This document shows, piece after piece, positions 1,843-38,206 of a stretch of 62,157 bases of DNA. This DNA is from a virus, in the IMG/VR virus record IMGVR_UViG_3300025294_000001; one strand, given 5' to 3'. Position 1 is the stretch's first letter. Every line of letters starts with the position of its first letter. The translations under genes were made by a program, and so were the position numbers. The notes below the pieces were generated by a model. It searched no databases. It saw only the letters and a program-made list of their open reading frames with translations, and was not told the origin of the DNA.

Positions 1843-2052
1843 ATGAAAAAATCAATCACTTATTTAAACGAGTTCACACGAGTATCAATTGTAGAATGGA
1901 ATGAAAATGATATATCTGTACAGACACAATTTAATTCATGGGCTAAGTTAGAAAATGAGTGGACTAAGTGGGAAGTACTTGACGAAAACGAATTAGGAAG
2001 CCATATGGAAGTTTACGGATACATAGAAGAAATGAAACAAGAACACCTGTAA
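1843..2052 (+). CDS. hypothetical early protein
   Basis: 69-aa ORF, SD AAGGTAGG 8 nt upstream, terminator directly downstream. Confidence 0.65.
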   Translation: MKKSITYLNEFTRVSIVEWNENDISVQTQFNSWAKLENEWTKWEVLDENELGSHMEVYGYIEEMKQEHL

Positions 2053-2069
2053 AAAGGTGTTTTTTTTTA
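2043..2069 (+). terminator. rho-independent terminator
   Basis: Stem ACACCT/AGGTGT followed by T9. Confidence 0.75.
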
Positions 2070-2248
2070 TGTTTATTTTTAGGTAATGCACAAAGGCACT
2101 TTTTTTATCCTTATATAGAAGGAACTCGTTTTAGGCACTTTTTTTAATGTGATTTTTTGTGCAGAATACCGCTTGTTTGCATGTTTTACACACACGCCTC
2201 AGAATCTTTTTTTATGCACATTTTCTTAGGGAAGTAGGGCTATGGCAA

Positions 2249-2370
2249 CCCCCTTATATTAAAGCCCCTTATACGGCTTGCTAGACCCCTCATATATAGC
2301 CCCCTAATATAAGCCCCTATACACCCCCTCTATATAACCCCCTATATATAGCCCTACCATATAGCACCCC
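2249..2370. repeat. array of about 9 degenerate ~14-bp direct repeats (C4-5 tract plus TATATA)
   Basis: C-runs start at 2249, 2265, 2286, 2300, 2314, 2324, 2338, 2352 and 2367. Units look like AGCCCCCTAATATA and CCCCCTATATATAG. The + strand is almost G-free here. Confidence 0.8.
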
Positions 2371-2891
2371 ATACAGTAGCACCACACACCCACGTACACA
2401 CAGGCACACACACAGTACCACACTACACCAGCATACACAGGCAGTACACTACCACACATACCCAATCACAAGTCAAGACAAATGAGTGAGTGATAGGAGA
2501 GTACCAACGGTAGTACCTCAACCCCAATCACAAGTGTCAATCACAAGTGAATGAACAAAGAAAGAAAAGAAAAGAAAGAAAGCGAGATAACGAGAGGCGA
2601 CAGCACCAGCCCACCACGTACACCCATGCATATACCCACATGTAATAGCATATATCATTTTATGATCTTATTTTTAGCACCCCCACCATAGGGGGGCAGG
2701 GGGGCTGTATGGGGGTGGTCTAGTACTTACAAAATATACACCACGAATTTGAAACCTTTTTGGGGAGGCTTGCCGTTCCTTGCCGTGGCTTGCTGTAAAT
2801 TAGCGAGGCTTGGAGGTGGTTACTGTTTTTACCATAACGAACCTTGTCGAACCTCGTAAAAAATTTTGGGATTGATTCTGAAAACTTTTTC

Positions 2892-2920
2892 TTGCATTAC
2901 ACTATAACCTCGTGTAATAT
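2892..2920 (+). promoter_or_regulatory. host-type promoter
   Basis: TTGCAT-17 nt-TAATAT. The flanking ACCTCGTGTAATATA...TGTGAGGCAA recurs at 41884-41932. Confidence 0.55.
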
Positions 2921-2978
2921 ACTACGTGTGAGGCAAACAGCCTTACAATTACAATTTAATATAAAAGGGGTTTTCGAT

Positions 2979-3422
2979 ATGAAAGAAACTAACGTTACTA
3001 AGAAGGCATTCTATCAGAAGTGGTGGTTTTGGGTTATCGTTGCTATCGTTGTTATTAGTGCTTACAGCGGTGGAGGTACTGAGGAAAATGACAATGCTGC
3101 TAAACAAACTGAGAAATCTACTAATCAAGTAACGAAAGAAGAACCTAAAGAAAAACAACCGGAAGTAACTGAGAAAACTCAAACATCTTCTAATGAAAAG
3201 ACAATGACAAAAGATGAATTTGAACAGATTCAAAATGACATGTCTTATGAAGAAGTAGTTAAGATCATTGGAAGTGAAGGTGAACTTCAATCAGAATCTA
3301 CTGTCGGTGACTATACATCTAAACTATATACATGGAAAGGTGAGGGTGGTTTAGGTGCTAACGCAAACATCACTTTCTCAAATAACAAAGTACAAGCAAA
3401 GTCACAATTTGGACTTAAATAA
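2979..3422 (+). CDS. membrane-anchored extracytoplasmic protein (one N-terminal TM helix)
   Basis: ATG 2979, in frame with track ORF 2844, after the SD AAAGGGG. TM segment WWFWVIVAIVVISAY, K/E/T-rich linker, globular C-terminus. Confidence 0.6.
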   Translation: MKETNVTKKAFYQKWWFWVIVAIVVISAYSGGGTEENDNAAKQTEKSTNQVTKEEPKEKQPEVTEKTQTSSNEKTMTKDEFEQIQNDMSYEEVVKIIGSEGELQSESTVGDYTSKLYTWKGEGGLGANANITFSNNKVQAKSQFGLK

Positions 3423-4149: not shown

Positions 4150-4908
4150 ATGAAAGTAGAAGAATTAGTATATGGATATAAAGGAAATGAAACTTATTTA
4201 ACGTTATATCTCAGCAAAGTTAGTGTTGAGGACTTAAAAACATTACAGCACCGGGCAGGTGTCTACATGATTTATAGTAAAGAGGATGAATTAATGTATG
4301 TAGGGGAGACAACAAGTATTCCAAGACGAATGGCTAATCACTTATCTCCTAATCACAGTAAAAAAGAAATTACAAAAGAATCAGTTGGGTATATTCTCTA
4401 TGCTTATTTAAAATGTGACAGATATGAACGAAGTATTATTGAGGGGTTGTTAGTTCATAAGTATCAACCAGCTTTAAACTGTAATGATGAAATGAGGGGT
4501 GACGCATCCTCTAAAGTGGACAAAGCCGTTCAATATGACGCACTATACTACGCTAGAAATACTGATATTAGGTCGTTCGTTATTGCAAGGGCGTTAAACG
4601 TTGACAATGAATATATCAATAGCATTCGTAACTATGGTTGTTTTAACCATTCAGAACTACCTAACAACTACATCCCTAAAGTAATCATTACACAAGAATT
4701 TATTGATAATGCTGTTATTTCAAGAGAACCTATAAACCAAACGGTATTCAATCAAATTCGAGAATTGATTGAAGAAGGTTCTATGAAGAAAGTTGAGATC
4801 GCACGAAAGTTCGGGATTTCCCCAGCTTCTATGACACGTATGTACCATTTGGACACTAATAAGTATCGAAAGTGGGAGGAACAACGAACAGGAAAGGCGG
4901 TAGCTTAA
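4150..4908 (+). CDS. GIY-YIG nuclease with C-terminal HTH (free-standing homing-endonuclease-like)
   Basis: GVYMIY...LMYVGET, then PRRMANH (Arg), then ERSIIEGLL...ALN (Glu/Asn), in GIY-YIG order. C-terminal KKVEIARKFGISPASMTRM looks like an HTH. Confidence 0.7.
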   Translation: MKVEELVYGYKGNETYLTLYLSKVSVEDLKTLQHRAGVYMIYSKEDELMYVGETTSIPRRMANHLSPNHSKKEITKESVGYILYAYLKCDRYERSIIEGLLVHKYQPALNCNDEMRGDASSKVDKAVQYDALYYARNTDIRSFVIARALNVDNEYINSIRNYGCFNHSELPNNYIPKVIITQEFIDNAVISREPINQTVFNQIRELIEEGSMKKVEIARKFGISPASMTRMYHLDTNKYRKWEEQRTGKAVA

Positions 4909-5054
4909 TGACAAGAGAAGAAAAAGTGAAACGTCTCATTGACTTAATTGAACAAGTGGAGGGTGTAAAAGTTGCACCTGACCACTTTGTTAACATGTCT
5001 GACGAACAGTTAGAAGAGGAAATCGAATGGTATGACTACTTAATGACTAAATAA
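4908..5054 (+). CDS. hypothetical small acidic protein
   Basis: ATG 4908 overlaps the upstream TAA (TAATG coupling) and is in frame with track ORF 4872. Confidence 0.5.
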   Translation: MTREEKVKRLIDLIEQVEGVKVAPDHFVNMSDEQLEEEIEWYDYLMTK

Positions 5055-5062
5055 TTTCACGT

Positions 5063-5095
5063 ACCGTACCTTTAATAAAAAGGTGCGGTTTTTCT
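5063..5095 (+). terminator. rho-independent terminator
   Basis: 9-bp stem ACCGTACCT/AGGTGCGGT (one G-U pair) followed by a T-run. Confidence 0.65.
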
Positions 5096-5096
5096 T

Positions 5097-5133
5097 TGTC
5101 TCAAAATAGGTTTGACATGCAAGTACCTAAGTG
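5097..5133 (+). promoter_or_regulatory. phage-specific promoter, class M, copy 2
   Basis: TGTCTCAAAA-N11-TGCAAGTACCTAAGTG, 21-nt offset. Confidence 0.6.
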
Positions 5134-5157
5134 AAGTTCACTTTTGGAGGTATTTGT

Positions 5158-6129
5158 ATGTATACATTAAATTCATTTTTTGCTGGTGCAGGTGGTTTTG
5201 ATTTAGGATTCTTACAAGCTGGTTTTAAAATAGTTGGGGCTTATGAGTGGGATTCCTTTGCTGTAGAAAGCTACAAAGCAAACATTGATCCAGGGATTGA
5301 AGTTACAGATGTTAATGAATTAACTGGTGCGGATTTAAAGAAAGCTGACGTTTGGACATTCGGCTTCCCATGTCAGGATTTATCTAATAATGGGTGTAAA
5401 ACTGGTATTATAGATGGTTACCGTTCTAGGACATTCTTTGAGATTATGAGATTACTGGACGAGGTAGAAGAAAAGCCATCTATCTTATTAGCTGAGAACG
5501 TCAGAGGATTAAAGAAGTATCTTCATATATTAGAAGAAGAGTATGATAAGGCTGGCTATAAAATGTACTACACTCTTTACAATAGTAAATGGTGGGGTGT
5601 GCCACAAAGCCGTGACAGATATTTTGTGATTGGTGTTAGAAAAGATATTGCTAGTACATTCCAGTTCCCTGAGGAACAGCATGACTTTGTACCAGTTCTA
5701 TATGATTTCCTAGAAGATGATAATAGTGTACCTGTCAATTTATATATGGAACGTCCTTTAAATTACATTGAGTTAGGCATGGAGGGCGAGGCTATTATGA
5801 TTCGTGAAGCGGTCAAGAAAGGCTATAACCTAGCTAATATTGGCGACACGGTAAATATCACGTATCCGAATAGTAAAACGAGACGTGGACGTATTGGAAA
5901 GCAAATCTCACAAACTCTTTCTACTGGACTAGAACATGTAATCATAACTAAGGATATGAGGGCAAGACGATTTACACCGAGAGAGTACGCACGATTACAG
6001 GGATTCCCTGAATCATATAAACAAGTAGTCTCAAATACTCAGTTCTATAAACAACTAGGTAACGCAGTCACAGTACCAGTAGCTTTCGCTATAGCGGTAC
6101 AAATAAAACAATTCTTAGCCAACTCTTAA
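5158..6129 (+). CDS. DNA (cytosine-5)-methyltransferase
   Basis: Motifs in canonical order: FAGAGG (I), FPCQDLS (IV), ENV (VI), QSRDR (VIII), GNAV (X). ATG 5158 follows the SD GGAGG. Confidence 0.9.
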   Translation: MYTLNSFFAGAGGFDLGFLQAGFKIVGAYEWDSFAVESYKANIDPGIEVTDVNELTGADLKKADVWTFGFPCQDLSNNGCKTGIIDGYRSRTFFEIMRLLDEVEEKPSILLAENVRGLKKYLHILEEEYDKAGYKMYYTLYNSKWWGVPQSRDRYFVIGVRKDIASTFQFPEEQHDFVPVLYDFLEDDNSVPVNLYMERPLNYIELGMEGEAIMIREAVKKGYNLANIGDTVNITYPNSKTRRGRIGKQISQTLSTGLEHVIITKDMRARRFTPREYARLQGFPESYKQVVSNTQFYKQLGNAVTVPVAFAIAVQIKQFLANS

Positions 6130-6210: not shown

Positions 6211-6720
6211 ATGATAGGACATAGAAGAGTACGAGTTTATGAGGACAACGGGCAAATGAAGGAAACGGATGTTTACTTGCCAAACATTAAGGACATTGTA
6301 GGATTCCTGAATGGTACATGGAACTTTAGTATGTTTGATGATTGTTTCGAGGGCAAATCTAAACTAGGTGACATTGACGCTTCAATAGAGTTACACGGTC
6401 ACACTTTAGTAATTGAATTTAAACGAGATCGTACAGCACTTACTACTGGTCAAATTGTAAAAGCTATCCGACAAGCAAAGCATAGCAATATCACTACTGT
6501 ATTTGTATTCGGTCATACGAACCGACCTGAGGAATACTTAGTTTTCTCACCTAACAACTTACAAGGTAGCGGTATTAAAAAGTGTGACACTATCACTCTT
6601 AGCAAAGTATTTAAGAATTGGAATGATTGGGCTTGCAAGAACTCATTAACAAGTCGTCATGACAATGATTGGACTATTGCCAAACGATACCTAAATGCTG
6701 TTGGTGGAGGGAAGAAATAA
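6211..6720 (+). CDS. hypothetical protein with a PD-(D/E)xK-like motif (possible nuclease)
   Basis: GDIDASIE...LVIEFKRD fits the D...E-x-K spacing. Sits directly downstream of the C5 methyltransferase. Confidence 0.35.
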   Translation: MIGHRRVRVYEDNGQMKETDVYLPNIKDIVGFLNGTWNFSMFDDCFEGKSKLGDIDASIELHGHTLVIEFKRDRTALTTGQIVKAIRQAKHSNITTVFVFGHTNRPEEYLVFSPNNLQGSGIKKCDTITLSKVFKNWNDWACKNSLTSRHDNDWTIAKRYLNAVGGGKK

Positions 6721-7403: not shown

Positions 7404-9155
7404 ATGAAGATAAAAGGGCATGTAAAAGGAAAGACCTATGACGAGTGGAAATTCCGCATGGGTGAGATAGATTCGTTCTTATATATCGTAAAAGAGAAAG
7501 CCCTACAAGGCAAAGAAATGTCACGAGACGTACTAGAGAAGGCTATTAAGCTGAAAGAGGAACGGAAACAATGTGAACGTGTTTTACGATGTTGGACATC
7601 TACACTTGAATTTATGTACGAATACTTTTCAGATGATGCGAACCCTGAAAATGAGAACAACTTAATTCCTGAGGGCATTAGCATTTTAGATGCACCAAAA
7701 TTTCACCAAGAATTAACAGACTATCTTGACGACTACATGAGAGATCATGCGAAGAGAATAGCTTGGTCAGTTCCTCGTGGTCACGCTAAATCAACTTATC
7801 TATCAAATATGTATCCACTGTATAACATAGTTTATAACTTACGTAAATTCATAGTTATCTTATCAGAAACTCATGATGGTGCGAAACAGTTCACTGACTT
7901 TGTAAATAACCAGTTAAAGGATAATAAGAAGTTACGTGAGGACTTTGGCGAACTGATGGGTGAAAACAGTCGTGAGAATAAAAAGGATAATGCTGAGAAA
8001 TTCGTCACAAAGAACAATATCATGGTTGCCTCAGGTTCTACACAGAAGCAATTACGTGGTATGCGATTTTTGAACGCTAGACCCGATATGATTATTCTGG
8101 ACGATTTAGAGAGTGAGAAGAATACGAACACACCTGAGTTAAGGCAGAAGAACTTAACGTGGTATACAAAGACGGTTAACCCACTTGGACAGCCTCCACG
8201 GTATGACAAGGAAGGCAACTGTATAGGCGGTACAGCATTTATATACATGGGAACATTAGTTAACCCTAATGGATTGTTACCATATGTAATGAATCGTGCT
8301 GACTTCAAATCTAAACGTTACTCAGCAATTGTTAACGCACCTGAACGTGTAGACCTATGGGAAGAATACGAACGTATTTATCGTGATTTAGATAATGAAG
8401 ATCGTAAGGACGAAGCGGAACAATTCTATTTCACTAATCAATCGGAAATGGATAAAGGAACAGAAGTATTGTGGCACGATAGAATGCCGTATTACAAACT
8501 TATCCAAGAAAAGGTAAACGTTGGAACAAGGGCTTTCAACTCAGAGTATCTTAATATACCTTACTCAGACGAGGACGCTATTTTCAAACAAGATAGTTTC
8601 ACTTGGTATGACGATAAGGACTTATACGATGAACAAGGTCGGATGATTCCGCTTGACTTGTACGGCTTTTGGGATATTGCCATTACAGGTAAAGGAGATT
8701 ACAACGCTATCGTTACACTAGGGCGTGATAGACGGACAGGCATATTCTATGTCATTGATGCATGGGCAGGTAAGGTAAATATGCATGAGGCACTGAGAAT
8801 CTGTGAACAGAAAATACTAGAATATGAACATCATACTTTTGGAGTCGAGACTATACAAGCACAATGGAGTATGTTCCAACAGTTACGTGTAAATCTGTCA
8901 AAGAAGAACTATTTCAAGACACGATTAAAACAGTATAATCCTCGTACTAAGAAAGAGATTCGTATTGAAGCATTAGAACCACTAGTAGAAGCTGGACAGA
9001 TTAGATTCAAAAGACAACATAGATTACTAATTGAAATGCTAGAACTATTTCCACAGCATGAACACGATGACTTACCTGATGCTATTGCATCTTGTGTAGA
9101 GGTCGCTGGTAATCACAGAAAACGTATGTTTACAAATAAACCTAAGGGCTGGTGA
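7404..9155 (+). CDS. terL: terminase large subunit
   Basis: 583 aa, directly upstream of the portal gene. P-loop-like VPRGHAKST, Walker-B-like MIILDDLE, C-terminal acidic nuclease-like HEHDDLPDA. Confidence 0.85.
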   Translation: MKIKGHVKGKTYDEWKFRMGEIDSFLYIVKEKALQGKEMSRDVLEKAIKLKEERKQCERVLRCWTSTLEFMYEYFSDDANPENENNLIPEGISILDAPKFHQELTDYLDDYMRDHAKRIAWSVPRGHAKSTYLSNMYPLYNIVYNLRKFIVILSETHDGAKQFTDFVNNQLKDNKKLREDFGELMGENSRENKKDNAEKFVTKNNIMVASGSTQKQLRGMRFLNARPDMIILDDLESEKNTNTPELRQKNLTWYTKTVNPLGQPPRYDKEGNCIGGTAFIYMGTLVNPNGLLPYVMNRADFKSKRYSAIVNAPERVDLWEEYERIYRDLDNEDRKDEAEQFYFTNQSEMDKGTEVLWHDRMPYYKLIQEKVNVGTRAFNSEYLNIPYSDEDAIFKQDSFTWYDDKDLYDEQGRMIPLDLYGFWDIAITGKGDYNAIVTLGRDRRTGIFYVIDAWAGKVNMHEALRICEQKILEYEHHTFGVETIQAQWSMFQQLRVNLSKKNYFKTRLKQYNPRTKKEIRIEALEPLVEAGQIRFKRQHRLLIEMLELFPQHEHDDLPDAIASCVEVAGNHRKRMFTNKPKGW

Positions 9156-9193: not shown

Positions 9194-10729
9194 ATGGACT
9201 TGAAAGACCTATTTGTCAAGGGTGAATACTTCCCACTAACTGACCATGAAAACCGTATTGTTCGATATATCCGAAATGATAAGTTAGCTAAAGGTGACCA
9301 CGCTGACGTATTTAGAAGTACAGCAGAAAAGCATGAGTTCTATATTGGTAGTAACTTTGCTGGATTAATTACACGTAAATCAAGTGACTTCTTATTTGGT
9401 GAAGTTCCAGTGATCTCAAGTGGTAAAGATAATAAATCAAAGGAACAAGAGACACTTGACCGTATTACTCAGTTAAATGCTATGAATCGCTTAAACTATC
9501 AGCAAGCATTAACTTGTTCTATTATGGGAGACGCATTTTACAAGGTTCGTTTTGGACAAGAGTATGCTGGGGCATTCCCTGAATCATATGACCCTAAACG
9601 TATCATTGTTGAGGCTGTAGACCCTAAGAAAGTGTATCCTCAGACTTCACCGTTCGATAAGTCAAAGATTGTTGCCTTTCATATTGCCGAGGCAGTTCAG
9701 GACGGAACTAGTGACGACTGGACGTTGTACGTGGAAAGTCACTATGCAGGAAAGATCGTTTACCGTCAATTTGATTTAGATGTATTCCGCACAGACCGTT
9801 TCGGTAATGTAGAATTATTCAAAATCGGTAACGAATTACCTGAGGGATATGAAGAAGAAAAGACCGGAGTTCCTGTTCCTTTAGTAGTACACATTGCTAA
9901 CTACAATGACGGTATCGACTGGAAAGGTCAAGATGATATTAGCGAACACTTATCATTATTTGACGAGATTAATAACCGCTTATCTCAAATCGGTTCTATT
10001 TTAGACAAACACGCTGACCCACCAATTGCCGTTCCTACTGGACTATTACAGGACGATGGTGAAGGTGGTACTTACTTCCAAGTAGCTATGAATAAAGTAT
10101 TTGAGGTAATGGGTAAAGACGATATTGTACCGCAATATATTTCAAACTCAAACCCACAATTAGACCAGGCATTTAAAGAATTAGAAATGCTATTAGAGTT
10201 CCTGTTAAGTGCTACTGAGATTCCAGCCGTTGCTATTGGTCTGAAAGACTCAGGTACAAGTGGTAACTCAGGTCTTTCTATTAAATGGCGAATGAACTCG
10301 TTACTGGCTAAGATTAACCGTAAACGTCAATTCTTTGAAGACGGTCTTAAACGTGTCTACATGATAGCACAGATGTTAGAACAGTATGCTGACCCTTCTG
10401 TATCAAAACACGAAATCGTAGTTCCTACAATCAAATTTAACGATGGATTACCACAAGATGATACTGAAATTGCAAACCGTATGGCTATTCGTACAAACGG
10501 CACTCAGACATTATCTCAGAAAACAGCGTTAATGATTATGGACGGTTTAAGTGAAGAAGAGGCACAAGCTGAGATTGACCGTATCAATGAAGAGAAGGAA
10601 ACGGCAATGAGTATGGTTGCTGAACCTTCTATCTTCAATGAAGAGGACAATACTGACGTTAGTACTGATACTAATACTAAAACTGATACTGAACCTAAAG
10701 AAGATACTAAGAAGGAGGAAAAAGAATAA
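9194..10729 (+). CDS. portal protein
   Basis: 511-aa ORF immediately after terL, with an acidic T/D/E-rich C-terminal tail. Call rests on position and size. Confidence 0.75.
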   Translation: MDLKDLFVKGEYFPLTDHENRIVRYIRNDKLAKGDHADVFRSTAEKHEFYIGSNFAGLITRKSSDFLFGEVPVISSGKDNKSKEQETLDRITQLNAMNRLNYQQALTCSIMGDAFYKVRFGQEYAGAFPESYDPKRIIVEAVDPKKVYPQTSPFDKSKIVAFHIAEAVQDGTSDDWTLYVESHYAGKIVYRQFDLDVFRTDRFGNVELFKIGNELPEGYEEEKTGVPVPLVVHIANYNDGIDWKGQDDISEHLSLFDEINNRLSQIGSILDKHADPPIAVPTGLLQDDGEGGTYFQVAMNKVFEVMGKDDIVPQYISNSNPQLDQAFKELEMLLEFLLSATEIPAVAIGLKDSGTSGNSGLSIKWRMNSLLAKINRKRQFFEDGLKRVYMIAQMLEQYADPSVSKHEIVVPTIKFNDGLPQDDTEIANRMAIRTNGTQTLSQKTALMIMDGLSEEEAQAEIDRINEEKETAMSMVAEPSIFNEEDNTDVSTDTNTKTDTEPKEDTKKEEKE

Positions 10730-11091
10730 TGGCACTTACAGAATTGCAAAAGAAAGCCGTTTTAATTCAAATTGAACACCCTGAAATTTCTCAGCAAGCA
10801 CTAGCTGAGGAATTAGGGGTACATCGTAATACTATTGGTAACTGGAATCGTAATAAAGAGTACATCGAGTATAAGAATGATTTAGCAATGGACGTTCACA
10901 AATCGTTCCTAGCTGATACTCTTAAAATCTTGCGTACTAAAACGCTAGACCCACATGCACGAGGACATTCACGTTACTTAGAAATGGCTTTAAAAACTTA
11001 TGGTGTACTTACTGAGAAATCAGAACAAACTGTCACTGTTAAAGAAGAGAAGTCAGAGAAAGACTTACTTGCTGAACTAATGGAGGACTAG
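10729..11091 (+). CDS. HTH DNA-binding protein (possibly small-terminase-like)
   Basis: N-terminal HTH: ISQQALAEELGVHRNTIGNWNRN. ATGA-type coupling to the portal gene. Confidence 0.4.
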   Translation: MALTELQKKAVLIQIEHPEISQQALAEELGVHRNTIGNWNRNKEYIEYKNDLAMDVHKSFLADTLKILRTKTLDPHARGHSRYLEMALKTYGVLTEKSEQTVTVKEEKSEKDLLAELMED

Positions 11092-12174: not shown

Positions 12175-12250
12175 TGGGGTGTAACTCAGTTGGTAGAGTA
12201 ACTGGCTGTTAACCAGTAAGTCGTAGGTTCAAGTCCTACCATCCCAGCCA
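12175..12250 (+). tRNA. tRNA-Asn(GTT)
   Basis: Hand-folded cloverleaf: acceptor TGGGGTG/CATCCCA, anticodon stem ACTGG/CCAGT, loop CTGTTAA, T-loop TTCAAGT, encoded CCA. Confidence 0.8.
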
Positions 12251-12251
12251 T

Positions 12252-12326
12252 TGGAGAGTAGCTTAACGGTAAAGCGGTGTCTTGATAAGGCAAGGAGTGT
12301 AGGTTCGATTCCTACCTTTCCAACCA
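12252..12326 (+). tRNA. tRNA-Ile(GAT)
   Basis: Cloverleaf with anticodon loop TTGATAA, T arm GTAGG-TTCGATT-CCTAC and encoded CCA. There is a G-A mismatch at the top of the anticodon stem. Confidence 0.7.
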
Positions 12327-12332
12327 ATACAT

Positions 12333-12403
12333 GGGGATATGGTGAAGAGGTATCACGTAACACTGTCTATGTTAAATCAGGGGTTCAATTCCCCTTATCC
12401 TCG
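12333..12403 (+). tRNA. tRNA-Asp(GTC)
   Basis: Cloverleaf with anticodon stem TAACA/TGTTA and loop CTGTCTA. Position 37 is T, which is unusual. No encoded CCA. Confidence 0.65.
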
Positions 12404-12444
12404 TTGTAATAACCTTGTGAGTGCCTTAGGACAAACTCTCATAT

Positions 12445-12539
12445 GGAAAGTTGTCAGAGTGGCTTATTGTGATTGGTTGCTAACCAATTAGGGCGATTAA
12501 TAAAAACCCTCACAGGTTCGAATCCTGTACTTTCCTCCA
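12445..12539 (+). tRNA. tRNA-Ser(GCT), class II
   Basis: Anticodon stem ATTGG/CCAAT, loop TTGCTAA, 23-nt variable arm (stem AGGG/CCCT with a 13-nt loop), T arm ACAGG-TTCGAAT-CCTGT, encoded CCA. Confidence 0.7.
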
Positions 12540-12543
12540 ACTT

Positions 12544-12619
12544 GGGGTATTAGTATAACGGCTTATTATGACTGGCTTCCAACCAGTAGACAAGGGTTCG
12601 ATTCCCTTATGCCCCTCCA
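12544..12619 (+). tRNA. tRNA-Gly(TCC)
   Basis: Anticodon stem ACTGG/CCAGT, loop CTTCCAA, T arm AAGGG-TTCGATT-CCCTT, encoded CCA. The D stem is weak. Confidence 0.7.
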
Positions 12620-12623
12620 ATAT

Positions 12624-12697
12624 AAGTTCTTAGTGTAGTGGTAACACGTCAGATTCCAAACCTGAAATCGTGGGTTCGATTCCTACATAACTTGCCA
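12624..12697 (+). tRNA. tRNA-Trp(CCA)
   Basis: Loop TTCCAAA and encoded CCA. Mismatches in the acceptor stem (C6-U67) and at anticodon-stem pair 31-39 (A-C). Confidence 0.55.
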
Positions 12698-23052: not shown

Positions 23053-26000
23053 ATGGCGGTTATCACACAAGGACAAATCACTCTATACGAGGTATGGGAC
23101 GGACAACAAGGTATTAAAGGGGACAAGGGTGATAAAGGAGATAAAGGTGACCAAGGACTACAAGGTATTCAAGGTGGTGTTGGTGCTGATGGAAAAACTT
23201 ATTACACTTGGATTAAATACGCTGATACACCAACAACAGGAATGAGTGACTTACCAACTGGTAAATCTTATATGGGTATCGCCTATAACAAAACAACAGC
23301 GACGGAAAGCACGAACTACAATGACTACTCATGGTCATTAATCCGTGGTGACAAGGGTGACACTGGTGAACGTGGTTTGCAAGGATTACAGGGGGCTAAA
23401 GGTGACCAAGGGATTCAAGGTAACATGGGGATTCCAGGGATGCCCGGAACGTCTTCTTATACTCACATTGCTTACTCAACTAGTGCTGAGGGTTCAACTG
23501 GATTCTCAGTAAGCGACCCTGTAGGTAAAACGCATATTGGTATGTACGTTGACCAAACGGCTACGGACTCTACTGACCCTAAGAAATACAAATGGACTCT
23601 TATTAAGGGTGCTGACGGTTCTCAGGGTATTCAGGGACAAGCTGGTGCTGATGGTAAGACACCTTACTTCCATACAGCTTACGCTACTAACTCAAACGGT
23701 ACAGCTGGGTTTTCTACTACTGATGCAACAGGTAAAACATATATTGGTACTTATACTGATTATGTTTCTGCTGATTCAACAGACCCAACTAAGTACACAT
23801 GGATGTTAATTAAGGGAGATAAAGGAGACAAGGGTGACCAAGGGGTTCAAGGTATTCAGGGTGTGGCTGGTAAGGATGGTACTACTACTTACACATGGGT
23901 AAAATATGCTACTTCTTCTACTGGTGCTAACATGAGTGACTTACCTGATGGAAAGACTTACATCGGTTTAGCATACAACAAGACAACGCCTACTGAATCT
24001 ACTGTAGCCACTGATTACCAATGGGCTTTAATTCAAGGTGCAAAAGGGGATACAGGCTTAACTGGTTCTGCTGGTACTAATGGTAAAGACGGTATTACGT
24101 ATTACACATGGTTGAAATATGCTGATACGCCTACTACTGGTATGTCTGATTCACCAACTGGAAAAACCTACATGGGTATTGCTTACAATAAGACTACTGC
24201 AACAGAAAGCACTAACTATGCTGACTATAGCTGGTCTTTAATTAAAGGGGATACAGGGGCAACAGGAAGTACAGGTGCTAAGGGTGACCAAGGATTACAA
24301 GGAATTGCAGGCCCGAAAGGTGCGGACGGTCAAACAACGTACACATGGGTTAAGTACGCTGATGATGAATTAGGTAACGGTATGTCTGATTTACCTGACG
24401 GTAAAAGATATTTAGGACTTGCTTACAATAAAACAACTGCAACTGAGTCTACAACTAAGACTGATTATTCATGGTCACCATTGTATGACAATGTTCAAGT
24501 TGGTGGGCGTAACTTACTGTTACTATCAGGTAAAACATTTAATACAACGGACTACTTAATTAACCAATATACATTATCTGAGGACTTTGTTGTTGGTCAG
24601 GAATACACGTTTGTTATTAAAGGTACTGTTCCTGCTGGACAGAAGTTTGGTATTTGGATGAATGGCGGTTCTAACAATGTTGGTTACGCAACAACAACAT
24701 ATGTTAACGGTGTTACTTTTGTAACGTTTAAAGCTATTGCAACAACGTCAGGTAATGAGAGACGCCTTAACCTTTACAACTTCCCACAGAACACTACACA
24801 GGCAACAGTGGAATGGGTTGCACTGTACAAAGGTAATGTTCCTATGGACTATGTACCTACCCCTGAGGACTTAAATATAGGTGGTCGTAACTGGGTTTTA
24901 GGAACTGGAACACCTAAGAGTATAACTGGTACTAACACAGCAAACCAAACTGTGAATATCTATGACTTTGTAGGTAAGGATAGTACACCTATTCTTAATA
25001 CAGATATTGTAGTTTCATTTGATTGGGAGGTTACAGGGACTACAACGCCTACTGGTACATTGTACATGCAAGGAAGTAACCCTTATCCGTTAATTGCTGA
25101 CAGAATCACTTTCTCAGCTTCTAACTTAAAAGGACATTACTCTAAGGCTACAACTAAAATTCCTGCTGGTAAATTTGCATCGGTTAACATGAGACTAGAT
25201 AACGTAACAGTGGGTGCTGTTGTTACTATCTCTAATTTCAAGATTGCAACTGGAAACGTAGAAACAGGCTGGTCACCTGCACCTGAGGACGCACAATCAG
25301 GCGTAGATTCTGCTTTGGCTTCTATTTCTGATTTAGCAAGTGATTCACTGTTAACAGCATTGGAAAAGCGTACTTTAAAGAAAGAGTGGGACGGTATCGT
25401 TGCTGAGAAACCAACACTGGAAGCACAGGCAACAACTTACAGTATCACTACTGAGAAGACGAATTTCACAAATGCTTACAACACGTTAAACACTTTCATT
25501 ACACCATTGCTTTCTAATTTAACTGTTACAAGTTCGGCTGACGGTAATACTCTTAGAACTAACTTTAAGAACTATTACAGCACGAAAGCACTTCTTTTAA
25601 AGAAGATAACTGATACAGCCGATACATTCATTGACAATAAAGCTGACACAACTACTGTTACACCAATTAAGAACGCTGTTGAGGGCTGGACTATTGGACA
25701 GATTAACGGTAAACCTGCAATGAATGGTGACATGATTCAGAAGGATACGATCTTAGCAAGCCGTTTAGCGGTCGGTAACTTTGAAAACTTATTCACAAAT
25801 GGTTCTGCTGAGTATGGAAACATTGGATGGGACGCACACCCTCAGTGGTCTATTGTAAATAGTACATCTAACTCGTATAGCGGTTTATACCACTTCAAAG
25901 GGCTACACGGTGCTTCTACAAACTCTGAGTTTTATGATAGCAATGTTATACAAGTACGTGCTGGTGAGAAGTACTACATGGAAGGTTACTTCAAGTTAGA

Positions 26001-27453
26001 AAAGAGTGGTACAGCCTTTAACACTCGTACTTTATTAGCTAGATGGATTGATAGTGCTGGGGCATCTACATGGTCTATCATGACTGGAAATCTAACTAAT
26101 ACATGGCAAAAATTTGCTTACGAATTTACTGTCCCTGCTACTGCTGTGAAAATGCAAATCGGTCTTTCTGTTGCTGGTGGTCTAGCTACTGGAAACTCAA
26201 CTTATGCTGATTCTCTATTCTGTAAACGTATGTTAACAGGTGAGTTAATTGTTGACGGTTCTATTAAGGCTGACAGTATTGATGTTGCTAACCTTATGTC
26301 TCAGACTGCTGTTATTAACACAATCAAGTCAACGGATATTGTCGGTGACAAGATTAAGGGTGGAAAGATCAGTGGTGTTACTTACGAAAGTATTAACGCT
26401 TCAAACCCTAAAATCAAGGCTGTTATTGAAGGTAACTCATTTAAGTCTTACGGTGCTTCTGACGGTACAAAACAGAACTACGCTGAACTTAAAGAGGGAA
26501 AAGTTGTTGTATTTGAGGTTGCTGAAAGTGGTTCACCTTATGGTGATAAACAAGCCAATGTTGAACCAGCGAGATTTAACGCTGTACAAGGTTCTTCATA
26601 TAGTTCTGCATTAGAACCTAATGAACTACGTTTTTGGGTTCCGAACATGACAGGTAAGATTTACTTTGACGTAACAAGTAACGGTTCTACTGGTTATGGA
26701 TTACGTATGGAATCACCTGAGGGTATTCAAATTAACAACACGTTAGGGGCAAGTACCCCAGCACTTCAATTTAGTCAAGGTGAGTCAATTTACTTTGACG
26801 GATGGGGAAATTTACGTGGTGGTAAATACTCTACACAGTATGCTACATGGTCAATTAAGGACGCCAATGACCGTATAAAATTCCTTACACCAACAGGTAA
26901 AGGTGGTAACGGTGCTACTGAATTACGTGGTCATGGTAATGGTATAGACTTCTTCTATAACGAGTACCGCTTCATGAGTTTTTGGGGTGATAGCGTAAAC
27001 CGAGTTATCCGTTTTGGCGACGGTGGACAATTCAAGTGGCAAGCCAATCAAGGACGCTTTGAGTTTCGTACCTTTGATGATGGCGGTTGGACTAATGCTG
27101 CGGCTGGTAGTTTCCAAAACTCTTCTTCCTTTAACTGGAAGACAGATATTAAAAACTATGAAGGTAACGCACTTGACCTTATCGTAAATACGGACATCAT
27201 GACATACAAAATGAAGCCACCTGTAAACAATGAAACTAATGAGATAGTGGACATTGAGACACTACCTACTCACATTGGTGTCATTGCCGAGTTCGCCCCT
27301 AAAGAGATTAACGGAACGGACAATACTTCTGTTGACCTGTACGCTATGATCTCAGTTGGATGGAAAGCAATACAAGAACTGAATTTACAAATTAAAGAAT
27401 TAAAAGCGGAAATCGACCTGTTAAAAGCACCCCCTGTGGAGGCTAATAACTAG
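23053..27453 (+). CDS. tail fibre / receptor-binding protein with collagen-like repeats and a C-terminal chaperone-like domain
   Basis: G-X-Y runs (GDKGDKGDKGDQGLQGIQG and others) alternate with six ~55-aa modules (TYYTWIKYADTPTTGMSD...YSWSLIKG). The C-terminus has SSFNWKTDIKN and a coiled coil, like S74-type intramolecular chaperones. Confidence 0.8.
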   Translation: MAVITQGQITLYEVWDGQQGIKGDKGDKGDKGDQGLQGIQGGVGADGKTYYTWIKYADTPTTGMSDLPTGKSYMGIAYNKTTATESTNYNDYSWSLIRGDKGDTGERGLQGLQGAKGDQGIQGNMGIPGMPGTSSYTHIAYSTSAEGSTGFSVSDPVGKTHIGMYVDQTATDSTDPKKYKWTLIKGADGSQGIQGQAGADGKTPYFHTAYATNSNGTAGFSTTDATGKTYIGTYTDYVSADSTDPTKYTWMLIKGDKGDKGDQGVQGIQGVAGKDGTTTYTWVKYATSSTGANMSDLPDGKTYIGLAYNKTTPTESTVATDYQWALIQGAKGDTGLTGSAGTNGKDGITYYTWLKYADTPTTGMSDSPTGKTYMGIAYNKTTATESTNYADYSWSLIKGDTGATGSTGAKGDQGLQGIAGPKGADGQTTYTWVKYADDELGNGMSDLPDGKRYLGLAYNKTTATESTTKTDYSWSPLYDNVQVGGRNLLLLSGKTFNTTDYLINQYTLSEDFVVGQEYTFVIKGTVPAGQKFGIWMNGGSNNVGYATTTYVNGVTFVTFKAIATTSGNERRLNLYNFPQNTTQATVEWVALYKGNVPMDYVPTPEDLNIGGRNWVLGTGTPKSITGTNTANQTVNIYDFVGKDSTPILNTDIVVSFDWEVTGTTTPTGTLYMQGSNPYPLIADRITFSASNLKGHYSKATTKIPAGKFASVNMRLDNVTVGAVVTISNFKIATGNVETGWSPAPEDAQSGVDSALASISDLASDSLLTALEKRTLKKEWDGIVAEKPTLEAQATTYSITTEKTNFTNAYNTLNTFITPLLSNLTVTSSADGNTLRTNFKNYYSTKALLLKKITDTADTFIDNKADTTTVTPIKNAVEGWTIGQINGKPAMNGDMIQKDTILASRLAVGNFENLFTNGSAEYGNIGWDAHPQWSIVNSTSNSYSGLYHFKGLHGASTNSEFYDSNVIQVRAGEKYYMEGYFKLEKSGTAFNTRTLLARWIDSAGASTWSIMTGNLTNTWQKFAYEFTVPATAVKMQIGLSVAGGLATGNSTYADSLFCKRMLTGELIVDGSIKADSIDVANLMSQTAVINTIKSTDIVGDKIKGGKISGVTYESINASNPKIKAVIEGNSFKSYGASDGTKQNYAELKEGKVVVFEVAESGSPYGDKQANVEPARFNAVQGSSYSSALEPNELRFWVPNMTGKIYFDVTSNGSTGYGLRMESPEGIQINNTLGASTPALQFSQGESIYFDGWGNLRGGKYSTQYATWSIKDANDRIKFLTPTGKGGNGATELRGHGNGIDFFYNEYRFMSFWGDSVNRVIRFGDGGQFKWQANQGRFEFRTFDDGGWTNAAAGSFQNSSSFNWKTDIKNYEGNALDLIVNTDIMTYKMKPPVNNETNEIVDIETLPTHIGVIAEFAPKEINGTDNTSVDLYAMISVGWKAIQELNLQIKELKAEIDLLKAPPVEANN

Positions 27454-30256: not shown

Positions 30257-30319
30257 AATTATTTTATGAAAGTATTTCCACCTTTATCACGGGGTTATAG
30301 CAAAGTTATCCACAGGTAG

Positions 30320-30441
30320 GGGTAGTTAAAATAATTTTACTAGGGTAGTTAAAGAAAATTAACTAGGTCTAGGGTAGTTAAAATAATTTTACTCAGGGTA
30401 GTTAAAAAAACTTTACTCAGGGTAGTTAAGAAAATTTTACT
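30320..30441. repeat. five iterons, GGGTAGTTAA(A/G)AAAATTTTACT
   Basis: Copies start at 30320, 30343, 30372, 30396 and 30420 (23-29 bp period). Confidence 0.85.
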
Positions 30442-30443
30442 CT

Positions 30444-30515
30444 AATAATGTATCAAATTAATAAATCAATAATGTATCAAATTAATAAATCAATAATGTA
30501 TCAAATTAATAATTA
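30444..30515. repeat. three near-perfect 24-bp tandem repeats, AATAATGTATCAAATTAATAAATC (AT-rich)
   Basis: Copies start at 30444, 30468 and 30492, directly abutting the iteron array. Origin-like architecture. Confidence 0.85.
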
Positions 30516-30612
30516 AATCTCTCTCGTAAATTTTGGCTGCTAAAGTTATAATGAACTGAGGGAGAGAAATACATAAGCAACTATTTTATGATCTTCAAGG
30601 GGGAATTTATTA

Positions 30613-30940: not shown

Positions 30941-31822
30941 ATGACAGACAGCTTATTTTCAGTATCACATGACCAAGAACTTAATTTAGGTAACGGCAAA
31001 ACTATAAACAATGTGTATGTACGTGTTTATACGTCCCTCTTTACGTCAGGATTGGTCGCTAGAATGGGTTCTAATAGGTTTACTACCCTAATGGCTTTAG
31101 CCTCTTATATGGACGCACAGGGCGAATGTTACCCTACTCAAATTCAATTAGCTGATGCAATTGGTGTTCACAAGAATACTGTAAACAAATATATCAATGA
31201 ATTACTAGATTTTACAATTGACGATAAACCTCTTGTTACTAGAACAAAGATAAATCGTGGTCAAGGTAAAATATCAAGCTATTACAAGATTCACCCACTA
31301 TCTCAATTAGCTAAGTTCAGTGGAACGATTGAAGAGGTTAATACCAAAACTACTGATTCGCTAATCACAAAGGGAAGTGATGAACTAATCCCTACCAACT
31401 GTGACGTAATAAAAGTCACTAATAATAATCAATTAATAAATAATACTGACGTATTAGAAGTCACTAATTCTAGTAACGCTATTAAGTACTTTCAACAGGT
31501 ATACAGAGAGACATATGACGTTAACTATACAGTGAGTAATTACGGACGTGAAGGTAAGATCATAAAAGATAAAGTACTAACGCCTTATCCTGAAATAGCT
31601 AAAGAGATTATTAGATTAGCTGTTACAAAGTATGACGAGTTATTCAAGAATGCACGTTACCCACGACCTAGCGTTGCTATGTTTAGTTGGGCTGTTAATC
31701 AAATCATTCCAATGATTGAAGAGGAACAACAGGTGATTGAAGTGGCTTCACAGTCAAACGAATTAGAGGACGAGGCTGAAAAACGCATGTTAGAACGTAT
31801 GAACAAGTTAGGAGGTATGTAA
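30941..31822 (+). CDS. replication organizer / initiator-like wHTH protein (DnaD-like)
   Basis: FTTLMALASYMDAQGECYPTQIQLADAIGVHKNTVNKYINELLDF wHTH. Directly upstream of the loader and helicase genes. Confidence 0.55.
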   Translation: MTDSLFSVSHDQELNLGNGKTINNVYVRVYTSLFTSGLVARMGSNRFTTLMALASYMDAQGECYPTQIQLADAIGVHKNTVNKYINELLDFTIDDKPLVTRTKINRGQGKISSYYKIHPLSQLAKFSGTIEEVNTKTTDSLITKGSDELIPTNCDVIKVTNNNQLINNTDVLEVTNSSNAIKYFQQVYRETYDVNYTVSNYGREGKIIKDKVLTPYPEIAKEIIRLAVTKYDELFKNARYPRPSVAMFSWAVNQIIPMIEEEQQVIEVASQSNELEDEAEKRMLERMNKLGGM

Positions 31823-31824
31823 GT

Positions 31825-32601
31825 ATGGAGACGAAAGACAGTGTATGTAAGTTAGCCCCATTTTGTAAAGTGGCTGGCAAGGAAGGTTTCTGTAATGCCA
31901 TTTGTTCTCCATACTTGCTACTACATGGAGAGGGTGAAGGTGGGCTTTGGAAGGCAACGAATGTACCGCCTAAATATAAAAACTCATTCTTTGCTACTCT
32001 ACCAATCAAACAAGATAATCCTATTGCACATACTTTTATCAAGTCATATACAGCTAATGTACTAGAAAACGTACAGAACGGTGTGGGACTATTCTTTTAC
32101 AGCATACCAAACGTTCATAACCGCTTAGGTACTGGAACAGGTAAAACAACAAGTGCTGTAGCTATTCTTCATGAGTACCTATTAGCACGAGTTAAGGAAC
32201 AGTCAAAAGGTGGACGTGTTATTTCTACGAACCCTGCCTTGTTCTATAAAGCTAGTGAATTTCAAACATTATACAATTCACAGTTTCGTGGAACATTTGA
32301 AATGCAAGAAAAAGCAAGTCTCAGATACTACAAGGTTAAGTCATTGCTTATGAAGGCTGAAATGTTGGTACTGGACGATATAGGTATTCGACAAAAGATA
32401 ACGGACGCATTCGAAAACGAACTGACAGAAATTATCGACGCACGAGACAGCAAAATGCTTATGACTATTTACACATCAAACTTACCAGTAGAGAAACTGG
32501 CTGAGACATTAGGGGAACGTATTGCTTCACGTATTGAAGGAATGACCGAACCTGTTTCATTCAAAGGCAAAGATCATAGAAAAGGCGGTATCCTGAAATG
32601 A
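31825..32601 (+). CDS. DnaC/IstB-like AAA+ helicase loader with a Cys-rich N-terminus
   Basis: Walker A GTGTGKTT, Walker B LVLDDIG. N-terminal C-x6-C-x8-C-x3-C cluster. Confidence 0.75.
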   Translation: METKDSVCKLAPFCKVAGKEGFCNAICSPYLLLHGEGEGGLWKATNVPPKYKNSFFATLPIKQDNPIAHTFIKSYTANVLENVQNGVGLFFYSIPNVHNRLGTGTGKTTSAVAILHEYLLARVKEQSKGGRVISTNPALFYKASEFQTLYNSQFRGTFEMQEKASLRYYKVKSLLMKAEMLVLDDIGIRQKITDAFENELTEIIDARDSKMLMTIYTSNLPVEKLAETLGERIASRIEGMTEPVSFKGKDHRKGGILK

Positions 32602-33851
32602 TAGAATCACAATTACTTTCAAAGATTATTGACGAGAACAGTTTTTACGCAATGACAAAATACAATGTGAACGGTGCGGACTTTGAGGCATACCCACATG
32701 TTTATCAATATATTAAAGATTATGTACAGGACTATCAGCAAACACCTGACTATCGAAACGTGGTTGCTAAATTTGAAGACTTTGATTATAGCCCTGATGT
32801 AACGGACTCATACGCTTACCTTTGCAAAACTATTAAAGGTCAATCAGCTAAACGTAAGGCTGTTATGAAACTTGCAAAGATTAACGAGAACTTCAAAAAT
32901 ATGAACGGTACTGAGTTTGCTACATGGCTTAAAGAAGAGGCGGTGTCTTTAGAGGCATTAGCTAGTTCTAGTTCCTCAACAGCTACAAACTACGCTGTGA
33001 ACGGACACGAACGTAAAGAGTGGTATAACGAGAATAAGGAGAACCGAACATACAGCTACATTCCTACGCCTTATAACACGCTGACAAGTTGGTTAGGCGG
33101 TGGCTTTGAATTAGGTGATTATATTTTACTTATGGCATATACCAACAAAGGTAAGTCATGGATTGGTTCACATATCGGAAACGTGGCACATACAAGTGGA
33201 TTCGGTGTACTTCACTATTCACCTGAGTTAAGCAAAAAGCAACAAGTGTACCGGAACGATACTTTACGAGGTCATTTTGATAACGTGAAAATCAGACGAG
33301 GTACTTTGGACAATGAACAAGAGTACTTAGAGTACCTTGACACGTTCAACGAGAAGAACGAAATCCCTTACTATATCAAAACTATGGAAGACCTACCAAA
33401 CGGCTTATCGGCTGATGTAATTGAGGCTGACTTGCAAATGTATGGAGATAAAATTGGAATGGTCATTATTGACGGATTCAACCTTATGAAGTTCCCTAAA
33501 ATTGGTCGTGACGGAATGAGTGCTACTTCAAGACAGTTACGTCAAATCTTTGGTCGTCATAAAGTAGCTGGTCTAGTAATTCACCAAACACCTACAAGTG
33601 CTGAGAAAGAGTCACGAGTGGACGAGGATGAATTAGAAGTAGAATTACCAGTACCACAGGTAACAGACTACTCAGAAACAATTGCTGTAGTACAGGATTC
33701 AGCGACGGTACTCACGTTCAATCAGAAGGACGGACGAGGACGTTTACTACTCGCTAAATGCCGTGAACCGCATGTAGGAAAGTCACTGGACTTACGCTGT
33801 AACTTTAATATGGGATGGATTACAGAGGCGTCACCAGTGGATTACTTTTAA
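32598..33851 (+). CDS. DnaB-like replicative helicase
   Basis: Walker A AYTNKGKSW, Walker B MVIIDGFNLM. ATGA coupling to the loader gene. Confidence 0.75.
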   Translation: MIESQLLSKIIDENSFYAMTKYNVNGADFEAYPHVYQYIKDYVQDYQQTPDYRNVVAKFEDFDYSPDVTDSYAYLCKTIKGQSAKRKAVMKLAKINENFKNMNGTEFATWLKEEAVSLEALASSSSSTATNYAVNGHERKEWYNENKENRTYSYIPTPYNTLTSWLGGGFELGDYILLMAYTNKGKSWIGSHIGNVAHTSGFGVLHYSPELSKKQQVYRNDTLRGHFDNVKIRRGTLDNEQEYLEYLDTFNEKNEIPYYIKTMEDLPNGLSADVIEADLQMYGDKIGMVIIDGFNLMKFPKIGRDGMSATSRQLRQIFGRHKVAGLVIHQTPTSAEKESRVDEDELEVELPVPQVTDYSETIAVVQDSATVLTFNQKDGRGRLLLAKCREPHVGKSLDLRCNFNMGWITEASPVDYF

Positions 33852-33860
33852 TTTAAAGTT

Positions 33861-33897
33861 GGTACTGATACTGATATTGGTATTAGTACCTTTTTTA
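33861..33897 (+). terminator. rho-independent terminator built from palindromic-hexamer repeats
   Basis: Stem GGTACTGATAC/GTATTAGTACC (one G-U pair) followed by T6. Confidence 0.65.
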
Positions 33898-33899
33898 TT

Positions 33900-33936: not shown

Positions 33937-33947
33937 AGGTGATTGAA

Positions 33948-34100: not shown

Positions 34101-34113
34101 AGAGGTGAGAGAA

Positions 34114-35239: not shown

Positions 35240-35241
35240 CA

Positions 35242-38205: not shown

Positions 38206-38206
38206 T

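Follow-up and report, generated by a model that had tools for sequence, protein, structure and literature searches.

Short direct terminal repeats (DTRs) have been established in the Paenibacillus phage Tripp and the Halcyone cluster, in Lietuvens (Sporosarcina) and in 268TH002 (Bacillus). In Tripp and the Halcyone cluster they are 377/378 bp long and were determined from double-coverage intervals (PMC4706335, PMC6070908), the criterion in the Halcyone cluster being a sharply bounded twofold read coverage whose edges are marked by pile-ups of read starts and read ends (PMC6070908). Exact terminal repeats were verified in the sequence records of Tripp (378 bp), Lietuvens (437 bp, annotated) and 268TH002 (310 bp); nothing on Lietuvens was found in the literature. 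The large terminases (TerL) of these three phages, all of the DTR type, are the nearest with characterised ends to that of the virus considered here, with identities of 46% (Tripp), 41% (268TH002) and 37% (Lietuvens). The virus is IMG/VR record IMGVR_UViG_3300025294_000001, a stretch of 62,157 nucleotides (the window), and the subject of this report is its largest gap without an open reading frame (ORF) of at least 50 amino acids (aa), 791 nt at positions 2053-2843. Comparison with the phages named above suggests that this gap is probably, though by no means securely, a terminus and packaging region, most likely a short DTR of ~549 bp that has collapsed into a single copy, together with flanking terminase-recognition motifs.

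Comparison with proven terminal repeats

In Tripp, Lietuvens and 268TH002 the repeat lies 1-1.7 kb upstream of terL and follows the last right-arm gene, which encodes a helix-turn-helix (HTH) homologue of the small terminase (TerS); small left-arm genes then precede terL. The window gap occupies the same site. It is non-coding, stands at the junction of the early arm and the terL arm, upstream of terL, and is syntenic with the proven repeats; terL is further away here, with a Sie/BLIP-like gene, a GIY-YIG homing endonuclease and a C5 methylase in between. An earlier note on this DNA, written by a model from the letters alone, had correctly placed the region at the boundary between the early-gene block and the rest of the genome. 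It had named four candidate roles without choosing among them; the comparison favours the packaging site or genome end, and an origin, a centromere and a structured transcript are disfavoured.

The likeness extends to the edges of the element. When the boundary zones were aligned with MAFFT, the known right edges fell in the column of window positions 2720/2721 (GGTC/TAG; a slash within a sequence marks the boundary) and the left edges of Tripp, Lietuvens and 268TH002 fell at window ~2172-2174 (CCG/CTTG). The proven repeats have in common with the window a motif of the CCTCGAAACTTTT type ~24 nt after the left end, then CCCC-(G)TATAC units, a C-run/G-run block inside the right edge and an AAAATA...TTT block just outside it. 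Tripp carries three related CCCC-TATAC-type units at the place in its DTR that corresponds to a C-tract array in the window. The Tripp 14-mer CCTCCGAAACTTTT, 24 nt from the left end, has one match with at most two mismatches in the window, at 2197; the match stands 25 nt after the CTTG at 2172, and the composite pattern occurs nowhere else in the window. The exact edges are proposed with less confidence than the repeat itself, and may shift by up to ~20 nt because a direct repeat, TGCAAA(A)TAT, stands just outside both of them.

The closest cultured phages by TerL are PK2 (OM112210), a Bacillus phage, and FA67 (OR113389), a Clostridium phage, at 46-51% identity. A profile of the right conserved block, built from eleven members of the window clade, matches the start of the PK2 record with E = 2.7e-5, and the block appears to be homologous there; the match to FA67 was marginal (E = 0.28, with an earlier profile). 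The TerS homologue of PK2 is the last gene before the junction, as in Tripp, Lietuvens and 268TH002, and the match thereby appears to tie the window region to the TerS-junction-TerL order of the proven DTR phages. FA67 resembles the window in having a ~740-nt, strand-biased, repeat-rich gap, whereas the gap of PK2 is only ~420 nt and lacks a C-tract array. The termini of both phages are unpublished, and a literature search found no paper on the FA67 genome or its termini. The PK2 record (OM112210.1; L002/L033) begins with ~44 G (positions 1-55) and ends with G8. To judge from the homologous block, it is broken within the G-run that corresponds to window 2690-2720, and the poly-G probably arose as an artefact during sequencing or assembly.

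A number of observations weigh against a DTR. In a neighbour-joining tree the window clade, FA67 and PK2 are sister to the DTR-proven TerL clade, not nested within it; this sister clade has no member whose ends have been mapped, and those of the window are predicted from a circular assembly. Homology between the window element and the proven repeats is not statistically detectable: an nhmmer profile made only from the known DTR edges found no match in the window, clade profiles were not significant against Tripp, Lietuvens and 268TH002, and the region gave no match by megablast or blastn to any of 50,697 phage records. The matches to Tripp motifs were spotted by eye, post hoc, and for the 14-mer by itself chance would yield 0.66 matches. 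The window element is also longer than the proven repeats (~549 bp against 310-437 bp) and has more repeat units (9-11 against 1-3). Unlike them it has early-promoter-like motifs and an A+C bias on one strand, which packaging leaves unexplained, and TerS is not adjacent to the region but is encoded after the portal gene. On balance the region is best classified as a known kind of element, a DTR-type siphovirus packaging region, in an uncharacterised family of Bacillaceae phage-plasmids, with unusually elaborate internal repeats.

Organisation of the region and its conservation

The non-coding span extends beyond 2843 to the ATG at 2979. As the earlier note had held, there is no believable ORF between the terminator at its start, which was recovered as a stem followed by a T-run, and the promoter at its end, read from the sequence, where a promoter scan flagged overlapping ATTACA/TATACT (Table 1). 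Most of the blocks that the note had described could be reproduced. The T-run AGGCACTTTTTTTA is present twice (2094 and 2133), and the three copies of CAATCACAAGT, the 26-nt A/G tract and the switch to G6, G6 and G5 runs are exact. The roughly nine degenerate 14-bp repeats of C4-5 plus TATATA were found as nine units beginning at 2249, 2265, 2286, 2300, 2314, 2324, 2338, 2352 and 2367, with a spacing of 10-21 nt and a mode of 14; Tandem Repeats Finder gave a period of 12-13 and 5.2 copies. Runs of four or more C are concentrated here far above chance, eight of the 46 in the genome lying within the 140 nt of 2240-2380, as do five of the nine runs of five or more C within 2249-2680. The + strand had been called almost G-free for about 400 nt. 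The asymmetry stands, and is better described as A+C richness, but the extent does not: G makes up 8.6% (19 G) of 2250-2470 and 14.2% of 2250-2650, compared with 20.6% genome-wide, and other 400-nt windows of the genome are poorer in G than 2250-2650. Over 2172-2720 A+C is 62%, with a GC skew of -0.25 and an AT skew of +0.23.

Three of the eight TGCACAW sites in the genome fall in the left conserved block, where they bracket the left edge. The T-run stretch (2061-2158) lies outside the predicted repeat, on the side of the right end, and relatives have three to eight such units. At the far edge the C5/G-run block can form a hairpin, and it contains two or three inverted copies that accompany the direct CCCC-TATATA units: I1 pairs 2281-2304 with 2700-2723, and I9 pairs 2367-2376 with 2705-2714. 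Relatives carry C-run/G-run pairs at the place of this block.

Homologous regions were collected by means of TerL and a conserved 169-aa protein from IMG/VR, JGI metagenomes, NCBI and ENA. One of them (L036) is identical to the window and another (L035) is ~97% identical. ENA assembly ERZ27251935 contains a contig, k141_181814, with 100% identity to the window. In L008 TerL is 99% identical, yet the best match to the region (window 2000-2987, the feature and its flanks) is only 84% identical; the DNA of the gene-free region evolves fast. An ordered layout is common to L008, L011, L016/L031, L018, L035, L040, L041, L042 and L043 and is partial in L012 and L014. The TerLs of the relatives that share it, at least nine of which are diverged, are 74-99% identical to that of the window, and the layout is kept even where this identity is 74-84%. 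Circular plasmids of B. altitudinis and B. licheniformis are among these relatives. It begins with T-run units, TTATATAGAAG or TTATATAGAAGRAAC, then TTGTGCAAA..CG/CTTGTTTGC, then CTTTTTTTATGCACA (in a fuller reading ..TTTTACAC..GAAACTTTTTTTATGCACA). There follow 6-11 CCC(C)TATATA units with a period of 12-14, CA- or AGGCA-rich DNA, and an 11-mer that occurs once and then twice in tandem. The right part consists of a purine-rich or CACC-rich stretch, the C-run/G-run block, G(N)C/T(N)GT..GCAAAATATAC..TTTTGAAAC, and the promoter.

In ten elements the distance between the two boundary motifs is 513, 527, 530, 537, 549, 549, 549, 571, 575 and 595 bp. The boundary blocks are the best conserved parts, the identity of the left block being 0.73-0.81 across six diverged relatives as against 0.24 for 2551-2677. 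In the CA/CAC-rich tract the conservation of the sequence is low (0.41) and the composition is kept; purine-rich tracts occur at the equivalent place in L008, L040, L041 and L043. All of the relatives that share the layout have an A+C content of 58-67%. Since the same layout recurs in diverged relatives, the region is, on this comparative evidence, functional, and the alternative raised earlier, that it might be non-functional filler, is excluded by the persistence of array and layout. Whether relatives would keep the array had been left to be checked; they have 6-11 units of the same consensus.

Table 1. Features of the gene-free region and of the genome, in window coordinates
Feature	Position	Strand	Remarks
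Predicted short direct terminal repeat	2172-2720	.	found once in the circular assembly; edges placed to within about 3-20 nt
Intrinsic terminator of the last upstream gene (1843-2052)	2039-2069	+	10-bp stem (2039-2064) and T-run
T-run units TTTTTTTATG or AGGCACTTTTTTTA	2061, 2100, 2139; fourth at 2207	+	repeat families D2, D5
Left conserved block	2081-2221	+	candidate terminase recognition set around the left cut
Contents of the left block	TGCACAA 2087 (+), 2157 (-), 2215 (+); TTATATAGAAGGAAC 2109-2125; CCTCAGAATCTTTTTTTATGCACA 2197-2220
C-tract array, nine CCC(C)(C)-TATATA units	2249-2380	+	period ~13-14 bp
CA/CAC-rich tract	2381-2460	+	relatives have CACAGGCA or AAGGCA repeats in its place
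CAATCACAAGT, three copies	2463, 2525, 2538 (span 2463-2548)	+	exact copies
Pure purine tract, 26 nt	2557-2582	+	exact
C5/G6/G6/G5 block	2678-2720	+	G6 2691, G6 2699, G5 2711; just inside the predicted right edge
Right conserved block TAGTACTTACAAAATATAC...TTTGAAACC	2721-2757	+	just outside the predicted repeat
GGCTTGC(C/T)G repeats	2760-2815	+	period 10, D8; window lineage only, not kept in diverged relatives
First left-arm promoter TTGCAT-17-TGTAATAT (TAATAT)	2892-2920	+	read from sequence; drives the gene at 2979-3422
BLIP/Sie-like membrane protein gene	2979-3422	+	downstream of the gene-free region, start ATG at 2979
GIY-YIG homing endonuclease	4150-4908		between the junction region and terL
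C5 DNA methylase (cytosine)	5131-6129		between the junction region and terL
Conserved 169-aa protein	6211-6720	+	upstream of TerL
Large terminase TerL	7404-9155	+
SPP1-type portal	9194-10729	
HTH small-terminase homologue (TerS)	10729-11091	+	Pfam HTH_Tnp_1_2, TerS PHROGs
Apparent replication origin	30306-30520		only perfect DnaA box of the genome (30306), five GGGTAGTTAA iterons, three AT-rich 24-nt tandem repeats
Replication module	30941-40438		initiator, helicase-loader, helicase and primase genes
Plasmid-maintenance module	54267-56744		RHH-like gene, ParA (AAA_31/CbiA), 93-aa ParG-like gene, 213-aa serine resolvase
Ribbon-helix-helix (RHH)-like proteins	1309-1695 and 54267-54500
ParG-like gene	55502-55783

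The runs of C and G raise the question of non-B DNA. The G-tracts of the array on the minus strand, or its C-tracts on the plus strand, together with the G6/G6/G5 block, might form a G-quadruplex or i-motif that pauses replication or packaging, structures that the earlier note had thought conceivable. G4Hunter scores are borderline across the array (-1.2 to -1.7, for a threshold of about 1.2-1.5) and reach the maximum of the genome, +2.68, at 2682-2727, and C-run arrays recur in most relatives. There is, on the other side, no canonical motif with loops of 7 nt or less, the loops being 8-10 nt long and AT-rich, and the potential is not conserved: the array of L018, whose runs are limited to C3, averages -0.77 and nowhere reaches -1.2, and the right block of L011, L016 and L014 consists of a C-run/G-run hairpin instead of G-runs. 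The TATATA half of the unit shows the same degree of conservation as the C-run, a sign that the array is recognised by a protein. A role for such structures is thus regarded as very unlikely.

The three copies of CAATCACAAGT connect the region with early transcription. The motif matches exactly the spacer found in the early promoters of the phage itself (TTGACAATCAAAAGTG...TATGATAGTAA..GTAAGG). Near-identical early promoters, gtgTTGACAATCAAAAGTGta..TTATGATAGTAAnnGTAAGG, are found at 59099, 59528, 59939 and 60990, and also at 1742 and 61893, and share an operator-like spacer, ATCAAAAGTG, that is the motif at 2463, 2525 and 2538; palindromes occur at 556 and 56027. In L043, from B. licheniformis, the early promoters carry ATGATAGT or ATGATAGTA and the triple motif is ACTATCAT, the reverse complement of ATGATAGTA. 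Since the motif switches together with the early promoters in this relative, the triple motif tracks them, and this suggests that an early-promoter regulator also binds within the element.

This link supports two further readings, neither of them likely. The region may be a regulatory insulator between the early (right) and late (left) arms, a function that could coexist with that of a terminus. The CAATCACAAGT copies would bind the early-promoter regulator, a C-rich, G-poor untranslated transcript would act as a termination zone of the Rho-utilisation type, and read-through across the junction would be stopped in circular or concatemeric DNA. Besides the change of the motif with the promoters in L043, it is consistent with this role that the region comes after an intrinsic terminator and several T-runs, and that the + strand is C-rich and G-poor over ~220 nt and would give an RNA without structure. 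An insulator leaves the boundary blocks, the length of 513-595 bp and the CCCC-TATATA array unexplained, however, matching early promoters were not found in L041, and the dependence on Rho is conjecture. The second reading, which we hold to be equally doubtful, is that of a composite nucleoprotein hub, in which three repeat systems are set on one length-constrained, strand-biased module of ~550 bp: the 9-11 CCCC-TATATA units with their inverted copies at the far edge, the TGCACAA triad at the left edge and the three early-promoter operator motifs. A regulator of early genes bound within the repeat would couple the plasmid (lysogenic) or lytic state to the access of terminase, and packaging would be under the control of a repressor. 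The A+C bias would reflect a strand-specific step, for example the duplication of the repeat by strand displacement.

Packaging proteins, a proposed route and competing roles

If the region is a DTR, virion DNA would have ~2172-2720 at both ends, and the circular assembly and the plasmid form would have one copy. The HTH TerS (10729-11091) would load on the repeats, that is, on the CCCC-TATATA units, on their inverted counterparts at the right edge and perhaps on the three TGCACAA sites around the left edge as well, and TerL (7404-9155) would cut at or near the conserved boundary blocks, ...ACCG/CTTGTTTGC and ...GGTC/TAGTAC. The interval between the cuts would be duplicated by strand-displacement synthesis of the T7 type. 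Packaging would then proceed rightward through the terminase and structural genes; because it would start on the terL side, the early-gene end would be packaged last and injected first, which fits the early cassettes that abut the right side of the junction.

The C-tract array is a candidate set of TerS binding sites. The TerS homologue is 78-86% identical across the clade and is homologous to TRIPP_92, to gp98 of 268TH002 and to the last gene of PK2. Its gene stands after the portal gene in the window clade and is the last gene before the repeat or junction in Tripp, Lietuvens, 268TH002 and PK2. Another conserved product, the 169-aa protein, is always encoded upstream of terL in the clade, is 72-95% identical among the relatives compared and has four invariant residues (D54, D56, E69, K71). 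It has no match in Pfam or PHROGs. Its AlphaFold model has a pLDDT (predicted local distance difference test) of 85, and Foldseek found no match to it in the PDB at E<=0.001, the best, all of them weak, being Hjc resolvases and PvuII with a probability of up to 0.89. The protein is possibly a PD-(D/E)xK nuclease or a junction resolvase, and as the latter it could debranch DNA before packaging.

Repeats at packaging sites have precedents in other phages. The concatemer junction of T7 and T3 reportedly has a terminal repeat of 160/230 bp, the SRL/SRR arrays of short repeats and pac signals. These phages resemble the window in their short exact terminal repeat (predicted in the window), in degenerate arrays of short repeats and in packaging signals at the edges of the repeat. 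T7 differs in that it is a podovirus with an unrelated terminase and that its arrays flank the repeat, whereas that of the window is inside the predicted repeat; no pause site for a phage RNA polymerase is evident in the window. The R-sites of lambda cosB, the pacL/pacR boxes of SPP1 and the pac hexamers of P1 are sets of several short repeats, lying in both orientations, that flank a cut site and are bound by the small terminase. TGCACAA in +/-/+ orientation and the CCCC-TATATA units, which have inverted copies at the far edge, are comparable to these, but the terminases of lambda, SPP1 and P1 belong to other families, and their ends are cohesive or made by headful packaging rather than DTRs. 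No site of the IHF type was identified in the window.

Centromeres and iteron loci, such as P1 incA, TP228 parH and the omega sites of pSM19035, typically contain arrays of 9-11 short direct repeats. The array might accordingly be part of a plasmid-maintenance element, either a centromere or a set of copy-control (handcuffing) iterons, bound by an RHH or ParG-like protein or by the initiator. This is made plausible by the occurrence of the family as circular plasmids and by the genes for ParA, ParG-like and RHH-like proteins and a serine resolvase. Yet the array is ~9.5 kb from parA (54693), which has an array of TTAGTA repeats directly upstream; the origin iterons, GGGTAGTTAA, are unlike the array in sequence; and related CCCC-TATAC units lie within the verified terminal repeats of Tripp and 268TH002. 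A maintenance function of the array is, with these points on both sides, quite improbable. The TTAGTA cluster lies at 54560-54660, and the palindrome TTAGTACTAR occurs 14 times in the genome, mostly in intergenic DNA, where ~1 is expected (among the sites are 28785, 34626, 37528, 41401, 45227, 52111, 59062, 60947 and 60965). The whole set is a candidate for a dispersed centromere or operator system.

The least likely of the roles considered, and one to which hardly any weight is given, is that of a second origin of replication or a structured non-coding RNA. In its favour are the size of the region, its lack of genes, its wealth of repeats and its partial AT-richness, and a conserved TTATGCACA at 2212 that differs from a DnaA box at one position. 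A complete origin is present elsewhere, however, adjoining the genes for the initiator, helicase loader, helicase and primase (Table 1). For an RNA, no sigma-A promoter is found inside the region. A search of Rfam at E<=1 gave no family in the region, only two sub-threshold chance matches, both on the terminator, and folding showed no excess stability, with z-scores of -0.93 for the RNA of the + strand and +0.08 for the DNA of the - strand. That the roles of origin and partition are filled elsewhere in the genome counts in favour of packaging as the function of the region.

The phage-plasmid genome

Positions 1-127 of the window are identical to 62031-62157. This exact overlap of 127 nt is an artefact of circular assembly (k = 127), so that the genome is 62,030 bp long and the start of the window is arbitrary. 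The + strand carries nearly all of the genes. Contig ends of relatives that fall inside the gene-free region (L012, L014, L016 and L018) were considered as evidence for termini and rejected, that of L016 being a circular overlap; those of L035 and L036 were also rejected, since by coordinate arithmetic they map elsewhere. By the same arithmetic the NCBI contig of L035 appears to end within the gene at 23053-27453. This 1466-aa ORF, which has collagen-like repeats of the GXY type (9-nt period) and four internal repeats of ~66 nt, probably encodes a tail fibre.

Close relatives have been deposited as circular plasmids, among them 'plasmid unnamed' of B. altitudinis B12 (60,381 bp; NZ_CP101507.1) and one of B. 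licheniformis (59,575 bp); NZ_CP154900.1 and L040-L043 are also members of the family. Others are contigs of ~57-63 kb in the genomes of isolates of B. subtilis/amyloliquefaciens, Priestia megaterium and Neobacillus niacini, and the family occurs in rhizosphere metagenomes as well. From the circular relatives and the maintenance module it follows that the element is a phage-plasmid of Bacillaceae, of siphovirus type and ~62 kb. The ORFs scanned included no integrase. The family, of ~57-63 kb, is undescribed and is without a close cultured relative in the collection searched, where no cultured phage has a TerL more than 52% identical to that of the window; a search of the GTDB species genomes with TerL gave no confirmed relative.

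Location of the probable ends would provide the correct linear map for annotation and predicts which end is injected first. Positions 2172 and 2720, the array and TerS are targets for the mapping of termini and for the construction of vectors for packaging or transduction in Bacillaceae. The link between the repeat motif and the early promoters suggests that a regulator of lysogeny may also act at the packaging site.

Upstream of the gene-free region there are small one-gene cassettes, each with strong sigma-A promoters and terminators, which in relatives include ArdA-like and ArdC-N-like genes. On the other side, relatives have different cargo in place of window 4150-6129, for example RapH-like or RNase T-like genes. 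The specificity of the C5 methylase was considered as a link to the C-tracts and dropped, the resemblance to M.HaeIII and M.HhaI being limited to the catalytic half. Six tRNA genes (Asn, Ile, Asp, Ser, Gly, Trp) are clustered at 12175-12697 in the head-gene region, after the minor capsid gene, and tRNA-Tyr stands alone at 38124-38206, just ahead of the DNA polymerase gene. A 389-aa ORF on the minus strand (52554-53723) is DndB-like. Finally, a bipartite motif, TGTCC(T/C)AAA-N12-15-TGCAAGTA(C/A)CTAAGTGTAAGG, is present in ~11 copies ahead of middle and late genes (4086, 5094, 6148, 30877, 33897, 35726, 38224, 42105, 45255, 47207 and 48933). It differs from the sigma-A consensus and is probably a phage-specific class of promoter, possibly served by a sigma factor or activator of the phage's own.

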